DNA of 32,000 nt from positions 1 through 32,000 of the forward strand of contig NJBF01000029.1 in assembly GCA_003144275.1 (NCBI GenBank), written 5' to 3'. This document shows positions 1,952 through 6,994 of this stretch, piece by piece; within the stretch, counting starts at the first letter, position 1, and the number at the start of each line of letters is the position of its first letter. The stretch comes from Candidatus Heimdallarchaeota archaeon B3_Heim. Its GTDB lineage: Archaea > Asgardarchaeota > Heimdallarchaeia > Hodarchaeales > Hodarchaeaceae. Below the pieces are notes generated by a model, which was not told the DNA's origin, ran no database searches, and saw only the letters and a program-made list of their open reading frames with translations. The translations under genes were made by a program, and so were the position numbers.

Positions 1952-2913
1952 TACAATTCTTTCCTAGGAGCTTTAACGTTTGTTAAAATCCTTGAAACAA
2001 CCTCTTCAGACGAACCACCAGCAATAAATGACCCAATATTCAGAATAATTCGATGTGATAACGTAAGGGGTGCTAATTCTTTGACATCTTGAGGTATTAC
2101 ATAATCTCTAGCACTAAGTACTGCGTTGGCACGTGCAAGTGCCATGAGATCTAATGATCCTCGAGGAGAGGCTCCAACTCTTACTTGAGGAGCTTTTCGA
2201 GTACGATCCACAATCTCGACTATATAGTCCTTTATTTCGTCAGAAACAGATACGGTTTCGACAATCTGTTGCATCTTCCGAAAAACATCTTTTGTGATTA
2301 TTTGCGATAGTGAGAAAGACTTTGATTTGCGGTTGATTCGATTTGTCAATATTTTTGCTTCATCTGTCCTTGATGGATAACCAATTCGAATTTTACTTAA
2401 GAACCTATCAATTTGTGCTTCAGGAAGGGCAAACGTGCCTTCAAGTTCTAGAGGATTTTGCGTTGCGACCACTAAGAATGGTTTCTCTGAGCTAGTTAGG
2501 TGATAAGTCTTTCCTCCTATAGTTACTTGATACTCTCCCATTGCTTCCAATAAAGCACTTTGTGTCTTTGGCGTAGCCCGATTGATTTCGTCAGCTAAAA
2601 TAATATCGGCAAACAAAGGACCTGGTTTGAATTCAAAGTCGTTAACTTTTTGATTATAAATTTCGGATCCAGTGAGATCCTGAGGAAGTAAATCTGGAGT
2701 AAACTGGATTCGATTGAATTCACATCCAAGAACAGATGCAAAAGATCGACAAATCATTGTTTTAGCAAGACCAGGATAATCTTCGAATAATATATGACCA
2801 TCTGCGAGAAGACAAAGCATAACTTGCCGTAATACTGCGTCCTTACCGATGATATGACTACCGATTTGAGTTAAAATAATGTTACAGGTTTCAACGGTTT
2901 CTTGGATATTCAT
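1951..2913 (-). CDS. moxR: MoxR-family AAA+ ATPase
   Basis: GHILFEDYPGLAKT (Walker A variant), RIQFTPDLLPQD, ILADEINRATPKTQSALLEAM, ATQNPLE, LPEAQIDRF, GASPRG. AGGAGG lies upstream. Confidence 0.95.
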   Translation of the reverse strand: MNIQETVETCNIILTQIGSHIIGKDAVLRQVMLCLLADGHILFEDYPGLAKTMICRSFASVLGCEFNRIQFTPDLLPQDLTGSEIYNQKVNDFEFKPGPLFADIILADEINRATPKTQSALLEAMGEYQVTIGGKTYHLTSSEKPFLVVATQNPLELEGTFALPEAQIDRFLSKIRIGYPSRTDEAKILTNRINRKSKSFSLSQIITKDVFRKMQQIVETVSVSDEIKDYIVEIVDRTRKAPQVRVGASPRGSLDLMALARANAVLSARDYVIPQDVKELAPLTLSHRIILNIGSFIAGGSSEEVVSRILTNVKAPRKEL

Positions 2914-3196
2914 AGTAGAAGGATCCTCCTATTTAGAGTGTTAAGTAAGAAAGATTTTCTGGATTTCGCTAAATGCATTTTTGAAAAGCTGGTATTATGA
3001 TTATTTAGATAAAACATCGTATTAACACCATTACAGGTGCAAATTCATCTTCTGACTTGATTGATGTTGCAATAAGCAAATTTCCTAAAATTTAAAATAT
3101 AATTCAAGTGTATTCTAGTTTAGCAGTATTTCTAACTATAATAAGCCTCGTATTCAATAAAAGAAGAAAATAGAAGAGCTCATAATAACTTGGGAA

Positions 3197-3601
3197 TTAC
3201 GCTTCTTTCCAGTCCCAGATCCCCACTTTTATCCAACGGCAGTAGGCCCAGATCCATGTTTGAATCATAATTGCTGCATCATATGCAGTAAACGTGAAAT
3301 GCCAGTCTTTCTGTGGACGCAGATAACAAATTTCGGTATGGCCATACTCATCCCGTCCATAAACATGGTGTGCCCGACTGGATATTTTCGGTACAACAAT
3401 CCATGCACGTGGTGGAGCGTTAGGGTAATTGTGCGGAAATTCGATCAATACGGTGAATGTACCGTGAGCATATTGTCCAGTAGTGGAATATTTTACTTGA
3501 ACAGCAATGTTACCATTATTTAAGTAGTAAAAATCTTTTCGCGTTAACCCTGGAAATACTCCTTTCAATTCATGCAATTCGTTCTCGACAGTACGATTCA
3601 T
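3197..3601 (-). CDS. E2/UBC-fold protein (prokaryotic E2-like), paralogue 1
   Basis: FTVLIEFPHNYPNAPP matches the UBC F-x-I-x-FP-x-x-YP-x-x-PP signature. HHVY...ICYL places a Cys at the catalytic position, followed by the conserved W (KDW). Confidence 0.8.
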   Translation of the reverse strand: MNRTVENELHELKGVFPGLTRKDFYYLNNGNIAVQVKYSTTGQYAHGTFTVLIEFPHNYPNAPPRAWIVVPKISSRAHHVYGRDEYGHTEICYLRPQKDWHFTFTAYDAAIMIQTWIWAYCRWIKVGIWDWKEA

Positions 3602-3636
3602 TACCCTACTTCCTTGTTCTACTATACTCAGTAATT

Positions 3637-4071
3637 CTAAAATATATGATCAATTACACCAGCTTCTGGCCAGTCCCATACATTCGTCTTGGTCCATCTA
3701 CAATACGTTCTAAGCCAAATTTCTACCAAAAGAGCTGTTTCATAAGAACTAAAATTGAGACGCCAGTCTTTCTTTGGGCGGAGATAACAGATACTCGCAT
3801 GACCATCCTCATCCCATCCATAAACATGGGGGGTATTTTTCAGAATTTTCGGTTTTTGAACCCATACTTTGGGGGAGCCAACTGGATAATTATAGGGAAA
3901 TTCAATCAGGATATCAAAATGACCACAGGCATATTTTCCCGTAGTAATAAAGCTTAATTGAACACATTTATTTTTATTTTTAAGTTGAAGAAAATCTTTT
4001 CTTTGTAAATCAGGGAATATTTTCTTTAATTTTTCTAATTCCCTATCGACTAAATTTCCTCTTAATGACAT
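3637..4071 (-). CDS. E2/UBC-fold protein (prokaryotic E2-like), paralogue 2
   Basis: FDILIEFPYNYPVGSP, PHVY...ICYLRPKKDW. A hand ungapped alignment to paralogue 1 gives 68/134 identities (~51%). Confidence 0.8.
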   Translation of the reverse strand: MSLRGNLVDRELEKLKKIFPDLQRKDFLQLKNKNKCVQLSFITTGKYACGHFDILIEFPYNYPVGSPKVWVQKPKILKNTPHVYGWDEDGHASICYLRPKKDWRLNFSSYETALLVEIWLRTYCRWTKTNVWDWPEAGVIDHIF

Positions 4072-4116
4072 GAATTTTACACTTCAGACGTTAGTTGTTT
4101 TGAGGATTGATCCAAT

Positions 4117-5334
4117 TTACACTTCTTCAGTTTTCTTCTCTAAGTTTGGTCCGTGAAATGGACATCCTTTATCTTTCTCTAAATCTTCATAGTAAACAAG
4201 CTCAAGTCCTTCAAAATTAATTATCTCAGTATTCGGTTTCATTATATTTCTGTTGTACCAGAGATAGAAATTAAATGGAAAGTGGTACAACCTATGTTCA
4301 TGTCCTTCTAAGAGAGTTGCTAAGCAAAACTTTGAGAGAAGAATTGTCAAATTATCAATATCTAAACCCAATCCTGGTTGGGCAAGTTGCTCCTGCATAG
4401 ACCGATCGTAAACTATTTTCTTTTCCAATTCATTGGTTGTGGGAATGCTACCTTTTGTTCCTCCATCCGTTAAAGGATATGCAAGGGAGTCAGCATATAC
4501 ACAATGATAACATAAATCATCTTTACGCGGATCCACTTTAAACAACAATCCCCCTTTCACACCATCAAAGGTTCCTGCATAAATAACTGGGAACTTCAAG
4601 TCATTGGTGTGGATGAAATCATTTATAGCAAAATTAACATCATGTTCTCCAGAAACAGCTATCAGGAGATCAATATCAGTAAATAAATCCAAGAAATAAA
4701 CAGCATCAGCTTTTGTTTGTAAAACAAATTTCTTTTCTACCGTTGTTATTTCGGTTCCTGGTATTCTTGCATGAATATAGTCTTTAACTGCCCTTGTTTT
4801 ATATCTCCCAAGGTGTCCAAGATCTGAAATATGCCGAATAATATTGTGGACTTCAAGATAATCGTTATCAATAAAGATAAATTTTTTAATTCCTGTTTTA
4901 GCAAGATACAAAGCCAAAAGAGACCCACCTGATCCCATACCAATAATAGCCACTTTTTTTTCTCTTAGTATCTTTAATGGAGTTTCTTCTTGATCAATAC
5001 GTACAAATAATCGATTAAGATCAATCATTTCTATAGCAAAATCTTGGACAACAGTAATAATTTCTTCTTTTTCAAAAATTTCTATTTTAGCAATCTTAAG
5101 GGTTTTTGAATCAAGTATCAAGTTAATAAAAGGGAACTTAAGTGAGAAATTAGGATTTGTGTTTTCTAGCGAAATATATCCAATTTGTTTAACAGTATCA
5201 GAGGTAGATGATATTTCGACAAGGTGAAACACTGTAAAATCGTCAAATATTCTTCCATACAAAGGAAAAGGATCTTCCTGAAAGTTTAATTCATTTAGTT
5301 GAGCCTTAAATTCAGGATACATGAGAAACTTCAT
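4117..5334 (-). CDS. E1-like ThiF/MoeB-family adenylyltransferase with ~110-aa N-terminal extension
   Basis: KVAIIGMGSGGS (nucleotide-binding), IDNDYLEVHNIIRH, GRYKT, Zn ligands CYHC (4501-4512) and CPFH (4153-4164). ATG at 5334, five bases after the JAB stop, is preferred over the track start at 5367. Confidence 0.9.
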   Translation of the reverse strand: MKFLMYPEFKAQLNELNFQEDPFPLYGRIFDDFTVFHLVEISSTSDTVKQIGYISLENTNPNFSLKFPFINLILDSKTLKIAKIEIFEKEEIITVVQDFAIEMIDLNRLFVRIDQEETPLKILREKKVAIIGMGSGGSLLALYLAKTGIKKFIFIDNDYLEVHNIIRHISDLGHLGRYKTRAVKDYIHARIPGTEITTVEKKFVLQTKADAVYFLDLFTDIDLLIAVSGEHDVNFAINDFIHTNDLKFPVIYAGTFDGVKGGLLFKVDPRKDDLCYHCVYADSLAYPLTDGGTKGSIPTTNELEKKIVYDRSMQEQLAQPGLGLDIDNLTILLSKFCLATLLEGHEHRLYHFPFNFYLWYNRNIMKPNTEIINFEGLELVYYEDLEKDKGCPFHGPNLEKKTEEV

Positions 5335-5339
5335 TTTTA

Positions 5340-6290
5340 TCACTTTTTGTCCTGCAAAATTTGCCAAAGAGGTTGCTCCAGAAGAGAGGGGATATCATCT
5401 TCAATATCAGTTTTTAGTAGAAGCAAAAATGGATTTATTAATTCCTTGTCATTTAAAGTCTCTGCTGGGTGAGTTTTAAATGTTATATTTTTTGACATAT
5501 CCTCTGAAGAAAAATCACAAAAGATTTTACCATCAGGGAATTCTGGGGGAAAAGATATTAATATCAATAGATTTACTAATTCTAGTTGGTCTAAGAGTTT
5601 AATTGTAAATTGATATGGGAATGATAAGACTTTTTCATCTGGTGTTTGACCTGTTAACTCTTCGATCTCATCCGTTGAAGTTAAATGATCAAAAATATTC
5701 ACAAGCTCATGTTTAACCTGTGTTAAAATATCACTTGGTACTCCTTTTTCTTCCTTTAGAGGTGTAGACATTTCTGTTCCTTCAATGGTGAAAGTCAAAT
5801 TACTTTGTGGAACACGACGAGTACGGAACGAATGGTTTTCAGTAAAACTTTCATCTCCTCGGAAGTAGACTTCAATAATTGGTTCGAACTCCACCTCTGA
5901 ATTGAAATTAATAATAAATGTCAAAATTACGTCAAGATGAGAATTTTTTCTGAAAAAATCCTCTATTTGTCTATGATCTCCGTGACTGGGACCACCGTAC
6001 CCAGGGTGCTTATGCCAATTTCCTAAATACTGTTGTTTCTCTTGCGATAAGACATTTTTTGCATATTCAGGATCTATTTCAAAATAAGCAGCTTTTCTGA
6101 CACAGTTATCGTCAGGAGGGATATGAGTCCTCACAATTTTTATAGTTAGTCGTGCTTCTTCCTCAATGACCTTCCCGAACAACATTCCACCAGTTTCTAT
6201 TTCTGGCCATAGGAAACCCTCTTTTACCATCTCATCGTATGTATCCTGAGTAATGTAGATAAATATGGACTCCGCTTGATAAGAGTACAC
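5340..6290 (-). CDS. JAB/MPN+ (JAMM) metallopeptidase with a C-terminal UBC/RWD-like domain
   Basis: ETGGMLFG (catalytic Glu) and GNWHKHPGYGGPSHGD (HxH...SxxD). GTG at 6290 follows GGGGAT; the track start is TTG 6317. The C-terminal LILISFPPEFP resembles the E2 ILIEFPYNYP. Confidence 0.85.
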   Translation of the reverse strand: MYSYQAESIFIYITQDTYDEMVKEGFLWPEIETGGMLFGKVIEEEARLTIKIVRTHIPPDDNCVRKAAYFEIDPEYAKNVLSQEKQQYLGNWHKHPGYGGPSHGDHRQIEDFFRKNSHLDVILTFIINFNSEVEFEPIIEVYFRGDESFTENHSFRTRRVPQSNLTFTIEGTEMSTPLKEEKGVPSDILTQVKHELVNIFDHLTSTDEIEELTGQTPDEKVLSFPYQFTIKLLDQLELVNLLILISFPPEFPDGKIFCDFSSEDMSKNITFKTHPAETLNDKELINPFLLLLKTDIEDDIPSLLEQPLWQILQDKK

Positions 6291-6341
6291 TGATATAATC
6301 CCCAAACTCTGGATCAAAAACTAAAAAAAGAGATATTTTAC

Positions 6342-6443
6342 CTAATAATGTTTCGATATTGGTACTGTATCTTTATTCTTTTCGGCATCTTCTGTTGCTT
6401 TCTCTTTTGACTCTGTGTCTACTCTTTTAACTGGTCGAGGCAT
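6342..6443 (-). CDS. 33-aa charged peptide MPRPVKRVDTESKEKATEDAEKNKDTVPISKHY, first gene of the JAB-E1-E2-E2 operon
   Basis: GGAG lies 9 nt upstream of the ATG, with an AT-rich TATA-like region further upstream. Same strand as, and immediately upstream of, the JAB gene. Confidence 0.55.
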   Translation of the reverse strand: MPRPVKRVDTESKEKATEDAEKNKDTVPISKHY

Positions 6444-6444
6444 T

Positions 6445-6505
6445 GTATTTTGCTCCATTAGTATGTAATTAAATACAGATTTAGTATATTTATTAATCTT
6501 TACTT
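6445..6505 (-). promoter_or_regulatory. Putative archaeal promoter and RBS for the peptide-JAB-E1-E2-E2 operon
   Basis: Minus strand reads gtaaagattaataaatata...taatggagcaaaatacaATG: purine-rich BRE-like element, TATA-like box, then GGAG. Confidence 0.4.
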
Positions 6506-6561
6506 CTGGGAATAGGAATAAGTTAGATGACATTCTGAAAAATTGTCGTGAATCACTTCTC

Positions 6562-6599
6562 AGGAAAAAAAGAGAAGAGTGAGAAATGACTTTTCACTC
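6562..6599 (-). terminator. Hairpin plus pyrimidine/T-run terminator after ccmE
   Basis: gagtgagaa/ttttcactc inverted repeat (6577-6599), followed on the minus strand by ttctctttttttcc. Confidence 0.55.
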
Positions 6600-6604
6600 G
6601 AATT

Positions 6605-6994
6605 TTAACTTGCATATTTGGAAGGACATTTTGTACTAATCATCGAAGCCTTGAACTGCCAGATATTCGAAATTGAAAGAAGTTTTCCTTCTACAACTAC
6701 TGTCTTGTCAACTTGAAATCCTGCTGGTCTTACTATATTGTTAGCAATTACTTGAATGAATAAACTGCCATTATTTTCCACCTGAGGATCAATAATTGTA
6801 AAATGAGTAGCGTTCATCTCCGTCACATTACCCACTATTTGTATTTTACGATCAATATAGGATTCTGGTTCAGGATGATCCATTAATTCTTGTACACTAA
6901 ATATTGGCACAGAGGAGCCTGTCAACAATATTAACAATGCTCCTGCACACACTAAAACAACAATGCCTGCTGCAATATTCTTGTTATTAACCAT
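6605..6994 (-). CDS. ccmE: Cytochrome c maturation heme chaperone CcmE, CxxxY type
   Basis: N-terminal TM, OB-fold-like core (IQIVGNV...VVVEGKL), C-terminal KCPSKY. ATG 6994 follows GGAGA; the track start is 7012. Confidence 0.92.
   Translation of the reverse strand: MVNNKNIAAGIVVLVCAGALLILLTGSSVPIFSVQELMDHPEPESYIDRKIQIVGNVTEMNATHFTIIDPQVENNGSLFIQVIANNIVRPAGFQVDKTVVVEGKLLSISNIWQFKASMISTKCPSKYAS

Follow-up and report, generated by a model that had tools for sequence, protein, structure and literature searches.

An operon encoding an E1-like enzyme without a crossover-loop cysteine

The DNA analyzed here (the window: 32,000 nucleotides, positions 1 to 32,000 of contig NJBF01000029.1 in assembly GCA_003144275.1) comes from Candidatus Heimdallarchaeota archaeon B3_Heim, an Asgard archaeon of the Hodarchaeales. 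Five co-oriented genes lie on its minus strand: a 33-codon open reading frame (ORF), a gene for a JAB/JAMM peptidase, a gene that encodes an E1-like enzyme (referred to below as the E1), and two E2 genes, E2a and E2b. The crossover loop of the E1 contains no Cys and carries a single conserved residue, Tyr309. The E1 gene and the parts of its product are as follows.

4117..5334 (-): E1-like enzyme of 405 amino acids, likely starting with the ATG at 5334; a ThiF-type adenylation domain, preceded by a presumably inactive MPN domain
5005..5334 (-): N-terminal domain, residues 1-110; MPN/JAB fold without the HxH...D metal motif, presumably inactive
4798..4941 (-): adenylation-site motifs G132xG134S135xG137, D156/D158, N164, R167-H168 and K179, each present in at least 80 of 81 aligned E1s
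4501..4512 (-): C275-x-x-C278 (CYHC), first half of the zinc site; invariant (81 of 81) and aligned with CYRC of ThiF
4375..4500 (-): crossover loop, residues 279-320 (42 residues), no Cys in the translation; predicted to be disordered
4408..4410 (-): Tyr309, candidate catalytic nucleophile; codon checked; the sole conserved residue of the loop
4324..4326 (-): C337 (KFCL), within the helix that follows the loop (residues 325-341 of the model); not conserved beyond Hodarchaeales
4153..4164 (-): C391-x-x-H394 (CPFH), second half of the zinc site; C391 in 80 of 81

The ORF as listed spans 4117-5367 (-) and opens at TTG 5367. The ATG at 5334 agrees with the N-termini of the homologues, and residue numbers are counted from the Met encoded there. 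The protein is a member of the E1-like/ThiF-MoeB adenylation superfamily (PF00899). It matched the Pfam ThiF family at 1.1e-23 (84 bits against a cut-off of 28), and its best PADLOC match was 'E1-E2' of the cyclic-oligonucleotide-based antiphage signaling system (CBASS), at 4.5e-28. An AlphaFold2 model of the whole protein had a predicted local distance difference test score (pLDDT) of 78.5. The top Foldseek match for this model was Cap2, and residues 111-405 gave VIA Z scores of ~24 to UBA3, UBA5, MoeB, ThiF and MccB.

Homologues with 53-78% identity were found in Hodarchaeales and other Heimdall-group Asgard metagenome-assembled genomes. Remoter ones were found in Nitrososphaeraceae (~36% identity) and in many bacterial phyla (27-34%). 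We aligned the window E1 with the E1s of 80 loci, which gave 81 sequences (13 from Hodarchaeales, the window E1 included, 13 from Nitrososphaeraceae and 55 from bacteria). The E1 has a Rossmann-type fold with a GxGxxG nucleotide loop, in which G132, G134 and G137 were invariant in this alignment. Its adenylation-site motifs aligned with those of ThiF, PaaA and Cap2, and the Arg finger R167 and the phosphate-binding K179 (80 of 81 for both) aligned with the equivalent residues of these three proteins.

Two further positions of the adenylation core are recorded here. Residue 170 (codon 4825-4827 (-)) is Ser in the window E1 and in loci L001-L003 and L079. At the Mg-binding Asp position of the A-T-D-N motif (4645-4650 (-)), the window E1 has Gly229 and then Glu230 (S-G-E230-H).

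Absence of a catalytic cysteine from the crossover loop

The first-pass annotation of this DNA had proposed that the E1 lacks the canonical crossover-loop Cys and has only four Cys in total. Both statements were borne out by the translation: the minus-strand translation of 4361-4512, CYHCVYADSLAYPLTDGGTKGSIPTTNELEKKIVYDRSMQEQLAQPGLGL, runs from CYHC to QPGLGL, and the four Cys of the protein are C275 and C278 (CYHC), C337 (KFCL) and C391 (CPFH). There is no inserted domain in the loop, and in the AlphaFold model residues 283-324 had a pLDDT of <50. At the positions of the canonical Cys, the window E1 has Leu/Ile and small residues.

A Cys-free stretch of 42 residues in one sequence is unremarkable: at ~1% Cys it is expected about two times in three. 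The weight of the absence comes from the comparison with relatives, with clusters of more distant proteins and with paralogues in the same genome. A Cys was missing from the loop in 80 of the 81 aligned E1s. In the exception (L070), the Cys lies three residues before the conserved Tyr, which is kept. When 1.84 billion representative proteins were searched with the family profile, at least 517 clusters (50% identity) scored E <= 1e-30. Among the best-scoring 150 of these clusters, 140 members had a complete loop, with mutual identities of at most 50%, and none of the 140 had a Cys beyond the fourth residue after the CxxC.

Four other ThiF-family genes of the same genome each encode a Cys 16-19 residues after the first CxxC, in the motifs KACT, APCT, GACT and EGCD. 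These paralogues lie on contigs C15, C10, C86 and C57 of the genome (G000; L081-L084), and two of them have a eukaryote-like (P/A)CT motif. The presence of the Cys in the paralogues, together with its family-wide absence, shows that the loss is specific to this paralogue and has been fixed across a large clade. The Cys-less clade extends over Asgard archaea (Hodarchaeales), ammonia-oxidising archaea (Nitrososphaeraceae) and many bacterial phyla.

The catalytic loop Cys that is characteristic of thioester-forming E1s (Uba1, UBA3, UBA5, Atg7 and Cap2 type) is thus absent from the window E1. The alignments support the conclusion that no thioester Cys is available on this enzyme.

Assignment of the four cysteines

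ThiF/MoeB-type enzymes build a structural zinc site from two CxxC pairs. C275, C278, C391 and H394 make up this site in the window E1, as judged from the alignment. Position 394 was Cys in 67 and His in 13 of the 81 E1s, the His being specific to Hodarchaeales, including the window E1. CYHC and CPFH were rejected as catalytic sites since both are zinc ligands.

C337 is the remaining Cys, and the first-pass annotation had named it as the one residue whose conservation needed checking. In the 81 E1s, column 337 was C in 12 and S in one of the Hodarchaeales, I in all 13 Nitrososphaeraceae, and A in 47, C in 4, G in 2, S in 1 and F in 1 of the 55 bacterial members. The Ile and Ala of the other lineages and the position in a helix ruled out C337 as the catalytic residue. 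The finding that the annotation had named as a refutation of its own proposal, a KFCL Cys acting at the active site, was therefore not obtained.

An invariant tyrosine late in the loop

Of the alignment columns between C278 and G321, a single one reached 85% conservation. This column was Tyr309, which was Tyr in 81 of 81 sequences, and the remainder of the loop varied in both length and sequence among the 81 E1s and among the clusters. The 150 best-scoring of the at least 517 clusters gave the same picture: in each of the 140 members with a complete loop, the Tyr is present and the Cys is missing. The Tyr fell within the final 20 residues of the loop in every one of these 140 representatives, mostly 10-14 residues before the Gly.

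The N-terminal MPN domain

In fold searches with the whole model, the E1 core dominated the results. We therefore modelled residues 1-115 separately (pLDDT 83). The top Foldseek matches of this model were all Rpn8, Rpn11, Mov34, CSN or JAMM1. In a VIA-wide search independent of Foldseek, 38 chains scored Z >=5, nearly all of them MPN, the best with Z scores of 8.5, 8.4 and 8.1. The matches included Rpn11 (Z 8.5), the Caldiarchaeum Rpn11 homologue 6fjv (Z 8.1; root-mean-square deviation 2.8 over 96 residues), Cap3 (9ild, Z 7.9) and BubCD (9ea5, Z 6.3). A Z of ~8 for an MPN match is just moderately over the background stated for the tool. The Cap2 linker scored Z 4.0, below the MPN values of ~8.

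The JAMM metal site (E...HxH...S..D) was not found in the alignment of the N-terminal domain (A2), in which only P7, G27, D31 and P68 were invariant. Because the JAMM metal ligands are absent, the modelled domain is presumably an inactive MPN domain. By analogy with the Rpn8-Rpn11 pair, it may dock the active JAB peptidase.

The E2, JAB and short peptide genes

The other four genes of the operon are the following.

6342..6443 (-): 33-amino-acid ORF (MPRPVKRV...PISKHY), just upstream of the JAB gene; probable E1 substrate or tag
5340..6317 (-): JAB/JAMM peptidase whose HxHx7SxxD motif is intact (HKHPGYGGPSHGD at 5976-6014); Prok-JAB 7.8e-06, PADLOC JAB 1.7e-12
3637..4071 (-): E2a, 144 amino acids, with His82 and Cys95 (codon 3787-3789); PADLOC E2 1.6e-09, Pfam UQ_con below the cut-off
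3197..3601 (-): E2b, 134 amino acids, with His79 and Cys92 (codon 3326-3328); Pfam and PADLOC scans, His...Cys motif

The best PADLOC matches of the E1, the E2s and the JAB peptidase were all models of the CBASS Cap2/Cap3 type. No CD-NTase was found among the neighbouring ORFs that were scanned. No ORF of beta-grasp size lies within 2900-6700, and none of the operon ORFs had a Pfam match to a ubiquitin-like protein (Ubl) or to DUF6527.

In all the E2s of the family, including the E2 domains fused to an E1, a Cys preceded by a His was invariant (ICYL, LCLY, ICHF). E2a and E2b are a Hodarchaeales-specific duplication, and both copies keep the same His...Cys site. The first-pass annotation had suggested that the missing E1 Cys could account for the two E2s, with one E2 as its surrogate. 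This explanation did not hold. The Nitrososphaeraceae operons and most bacterial ones have just one E2, and the E1 Cys is missing there too; the duplication is thus no compensation for its loss. The single-E2 lineages and the identical His...Cys in both paralogues ruled out a second E2 acting as a surrogate E1 Cys.

All 10 Hodarchaeales loci examined had the 33-residue ORF upstream of JAB, in nearly invariant form, while the E1 fell to 54% identity. The pairwise nucleotide differences of the ORF were concentrated at codon position 3, with 744 there, 129 at position 1 and 49 at position 2. A GGAG and a promoter-like TTAATAAATA box are conserved upstream. The encoded peptide is likely a tag or substrate of the E1.

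Small ORFs were also found in the remoter lineages. In Nitrososphaeraceae, an ORF of 52 amino acids in the matching position starts with MPR and ends in TIPNIKHF(Y/F) plus 3-5 variable residues. This extension suggests C-terminal trimming that exposes an aromatic end, perhaps by the JAB peptidase. In the bacterial relatives, an ORF of 61-64 amino acids lies between the E2 and E1 genes; it has a conserved FDPxTGE and ends in DGF(F/A) with or without a short extension, and a variant in L031 and L029 has a C-terminal PQRWF. The small ORF thus accompanies the enzymes in archaea and in bacteria despite differing gene orders: JAB-E1-E2 in Nitrososphaeraceae and mostly JAB-E2-small ORF-E1 in bacteria.

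L015:6805-6966, L016:3733-3891, L020:6805-6963 and L023:6780-6938 (+): 52-amino-acid ORF of Nitrososphaeraceae
L033:7419-7604, L039:7396-7590, L052:7390-7581 and L045:7339-7590 (+): small ORF of bacteria

The cassette JAB-E1-E2a-E2b is kept across the Hodarchaeales loci, even with different flanking genes. In the window, CcmE and a large membrane protein are encoded upstream of the cassette, and genes for MoxR and a DUF4129 protein lie downstream of it. Gene fusions occur within the Cys-less, Tyr-bearing clade: JAB-E1 in P0108 and P0227, and E2-E1 with the E2 Cys in P0225, P0235 and P0245. These fusions indicate that the three activities are linked, which argues against pure peptide maturation.

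Several side observations concern the partner genes. The C-terminus of the JAB protein (5340-5750 (-)) has ~140 extra residues with an FPPEFPDG motif that recalls the E2/UEV flap. This region is conserved in Hodarchaeales (JAB_C, 1e-32 to 2e-60) and was not detected in the JAB proteins of Nitrososphaeraceae. The list of fusions in the clade (P0108, P0227, P0235, P0225, P0245, P0122) includes an E1 with a C-terminal, Cys-less E2-like domain. In Flavobacterium loci, a gene for an AAA+ ATPase of ~552 amino acids (Pfam AAA 6.7e-23) directly follows the E1 gene, a location that hints at a link of tagging with unfolding.

L045:8847-10505, L041:8839-10503 and L057:8839-10500 (+): AAA+ ATPase of Flavobacterium

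Comparison with known systems

The bacterial Bub system (Ye, Gong, Chambers, Corbett; 10.1101/2024.11.21.623953) provides the closest chemical parallel. Its E1s, BubCD of Citrobacter (PDB 9EA4, 9EA5, 9EAV), which is a JAB-E1 fusion, and BubBD of E. coli, have no crossover-loop Cys. Their loops share a single invariant residue, Tyr (Y370 and Y342, respectively), which lies within a disordered part of the loop, and its change to Phe abolishes conjugation (10.1101/2024.11.21.623953). The partner E2 uses Ser/His, so that the whole cascade runs on oxyesters (10.1101/2024.11.21.623953). Like the Bub E1s, the window E1 lacks the loop Cys, has one invariant Tyr late in a flexible loop, consists of a single homodimer-type adenylation domain after an MPN/JAB fold, and is encoded together with an E2 and a peptidase.

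The two systems differ in several respects. The MPN domain of the window E1 lacks the metal ligands and the active JAB is encoded by a gene of its own; the partner E2s rely on Cys in place of Ser/His; the candidate substrate is a 33-residue peptide ending in Tyr, whereas Bub has a beta-grasp Ubl (BubA) ending in Gly; no DUF6527 protein (BubE) is encoded among the operon ORFs; and the host is an archaeon. Sequence, E2 nucleophile and the lack of a Ubl and of DUF6527 ruled out membership in Bub. A Tyr-type, Cys-less E1 as such is already known from Bub. The present clade stands apart in sequence and has Cys E2s, a probable peptide substrate in place of the Ubl and a presumably dead MPN domain, and its members include Asgard and thaumarchaeal archaea.

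Cap2, which acts with Cap3 in Type II CBASS (PDB 7TO3, 7TSQ; Ledvina et al., 10.1101/2022.03.31.486616), shares with the window E1 the R-H motif after the Arg finger, and it acts on an unstructured C-terminal tail and not on a Ubl, as the window system would. Unlike the window E1, it is an E2-linker-E1 fusion with a crossover-loop Cys (Cys548), and it conjugates the adjacent CD-NTase. The window has separate E2 genes and a loop Tyr without a Cys; the E2-E1 fusions of the clade likewise lack the E1 Cys.

MoeB and ThiF (PDB 1JW9, 1ZUD) were the nearest solved structures by sequence (profile E ~1e-18). Like the window E1, they have the adenylation fold and a dimer-type architecture, and they contain the zinc site. 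Unlike it, they activate the beta-grasp sulfur carriers MoaD and ThiS, have the loop Cys just before AGV, and lack an MPN domain as well as E2 and JAB partners. MccB and PaaA (PDB 3H5A, 5FF5), which were good matches in fold and sequence, resemble what is proposed for the window E1 in acting on a short peptide without an E1 thioester. They differ from it in having an N-terminal peptide clamp and no E2/JAB partners, and their product is a modified peptide, not a protein conjugate. In the window E1 the N-terminal domain is an MPN domain, and the operon has conserved E2 and JAB genes.

Iyer et al. 2006 (PMC1779556) describe five operon types, 6a-6e, and the operon of the window matches none of these descriptions. 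Its bacterial relatives might overlap type 6d. Full-text literature searches turned up no description of this clade, the Bub preprint being the one match that deals with a tyrosine E1; such an absence from the literature is weak evidence.

A possible tyrosine relay

The likeness to Bub, a loop Tyr without a loop Cys, makes Tyr309 a candidate nucleophile by analogy with Tyr370 of BubCD. On this reading, the E1 would bind the 33-residue peptide of its operon and adenylate the C-terminal carboxylate at the site formed by GxGxxG, Arg167 and Lys179. The loop would then bring Tyr309 onto the acyl-adenylate, giving a peptide-Tyr aryl ester, and would present this ester to E2a or E2b, on whose invariant Cys a thioester would form. 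The E2 would move the peptide to an amino group of a target. The separate JAB peptidase would trim the peptide or reverse the mark.

We give this route, from peptide adenylate through Tyr309 ester and E2 thioester to a target amine, an even chance of being correct. Several lines of evidence argue for a relay through Tyr309: the loop has no Cys at a catalytic position and has the invariant Tyr (81 of 81; 140 of 140); it is predicted to be flexible, and the part of the BubCD loop that bears Tyr370 is disordered as well; the Bub precedent, the arrangement of an MPN domain before the E1, the invariant adenylation motifs and the invariant His...Cys of the E2s all fit, as do the JAB-E1 and E2-E1 fusions and the conserved small ORF. 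HMMER aligned residues 184-229 of BubCD, containing the G-loop, with residues 124-169 of the E1, and this offset of 60 places Tyr309 near position 369-370 of BubCD. A phenyl ester is an activated ester, which makes transfer to a thiolate plausible. The co-occurrence of the genes, the lack of the loop Cys, the invariance of the Tyr, the zinc site, the MPN fold and the E2 Cys were observed. We infer all the chemical steps, adenylation among them because of the Gly at the Mg-binding Asp position. By analogy, the E1 probably passes the 33-residue peptide to the Cys E2s by chemistry shown so far only in bacterial Bub.

Several observations weigh against the relay. The similarity of the window family to BubCD was confined to the G-loop, with E values of 5e-6 for the archaeal profile (A1) and 3e-5 for the bacterial one (A3), and in the family profile searches ThiF, MoeB, UBA5, MccB and Cap2 outscored BubCD by far. 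The equivalence of Tyr309 to Tyr370 is an offset estimate, as the two PDB profile searches align the G-loop only. Because the sequence similarity to BubCD is weak, the Tyr may be convergent, perhaps with another role such as gating or binding of the aromatic C-terminus of the peptide. Its position differs from that of the canonical residue: the loop Cys of MoeB, ThiF, UBA5 and Atg7 lies ~4-6 residues before the Gly, whereas the Tyr precedes the Gly of PGL by 10-14 residues. Finally, the Mg-binding Asp is Gly in both archaeal clades, with an acidic residue (Glu/Asp; Gly-Asp in Nitrososphaeraceae) one position on, while it is kept in all 55 bacterial members.

Alternative explanations

The first-pass annotation had offered two ways around the missing Cys, a direct passage of the adenylate to an E2 Cys or a non-thioester intermediate, and each has a published precedent, in Cap2 C548A and in Bub Tyr370, respectively. 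In the former route, the E2 Cys would attack the peptide acyl-adenylate with no covalent E1 intermediate, and Tyr309 would have a non-covalent role in closing the site, in bringing the E2 or the peptide's aromatic C-terminus into place, or in stabilising the leaving group. We rate this route as possible, with distinctly lower probability than the relay. In its favour, and against the relay, Cap2 C548A is reported to retain conjugation in vitro, since Cys109 of its E2 part 'can function in its stead' (10.1101/2022.03.31.486616); the dispensability of the Cap2 Cys in vitro is a direct precedent for attack by an E2 Cys. Cap2 is also the best PADLOC match of the E1 and its closest relative among defence systems, and shares the R-H motif, and the E2-E1 fusions in the Cys-less clade would hold the E2 Cys beside the adenylation site. 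In cells, however, the E1 Cys of Cap2 is still required. Moreover, a purely steric role seldom gives invariance in 221 of 221 sequences within an otherwise variable loop, and Bub needs the same kind of Tyr for transfer.

The remaining alternatives are much less probable than either the Tyr309 relay or direct attack. The E1 could be a peptide-maturation enzyme of the MccB, PaaA or TcdA kind that adenylates the peptide at its C-terminus for an intramolecular or small-molecule reaction, without protein conjugation. The candidate substrate is indeed a short peptide and not a beta-grasp protein, and MccB and PaaA, which need no catalytic Cys, are among the sequence and fold matches. Against this, each operon encodes a JAB whose metal site is intact and an E2 in which His...Cys is invariant; the clade includes fusions of E2 with E1 and of JAB with E1; and the N-terminal domain has the MPN fold and is not a peptide clamp. 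We consider this reading improbable. Still less probable is a nucleophile at residue 170 of the adenylation core (R167-H168-x-C/S170). In its favour, this residue, three positions after the Arg finger, was Cys in 75 of the 81 sequences and Ser in 5, with nothing else seen. Against it, the residue aligns with a Leu of ThiF (RQIL) and Cap2 (RHAL), as expected of a position in the core or in a pocket; from its fixed helix it could not reach the E2; and a catalytic nucleophile would not normally switch between Cys and Ser among close relatives. Least probable of all is an archaeal E1 that is a catalytically dead scaffold, with the operon running without adenylation. What speaks for it is the Gly at the canonical Mg-binding Asp in both archaeal clades. 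Against it, an acidic residue (E230 or D) directly follows, and the remaining residues of the nucleotide site are invariant under strong purifying selection.

Implications for E1 chemistry

Until the 2024 work on Bub, the thioester Cys was held to be a defining trait of protein-conjugating E1s. The clade described here would show that the tyrosine solution extends beyond one bacterial system. We advance more tentatively, at somewhat less than even probability, the view that the clade represents a third kind of E1-E2 relay, in which an unfolded, aromatic-ended peptide tag would be held as an aryl ester on a loop Tyr and then passed to a Cys E2, in a widespread group of proteins. If this is true, Bub-type oxyester chemistry and canonical thioester chemistry are mixed in a protein-tagging system free of ubiquitin, and the relay is present in the archaeal order commonly placed nearest to eukaryotes. 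The system is compact, with four proteins and a peptide, and is open to reconstitution. It bears on the evolution of E1 chemistry, on the minimal requirements of a conjugation cascade, and on modifier systems in the archaeal lineage nearest to eukaryotes.

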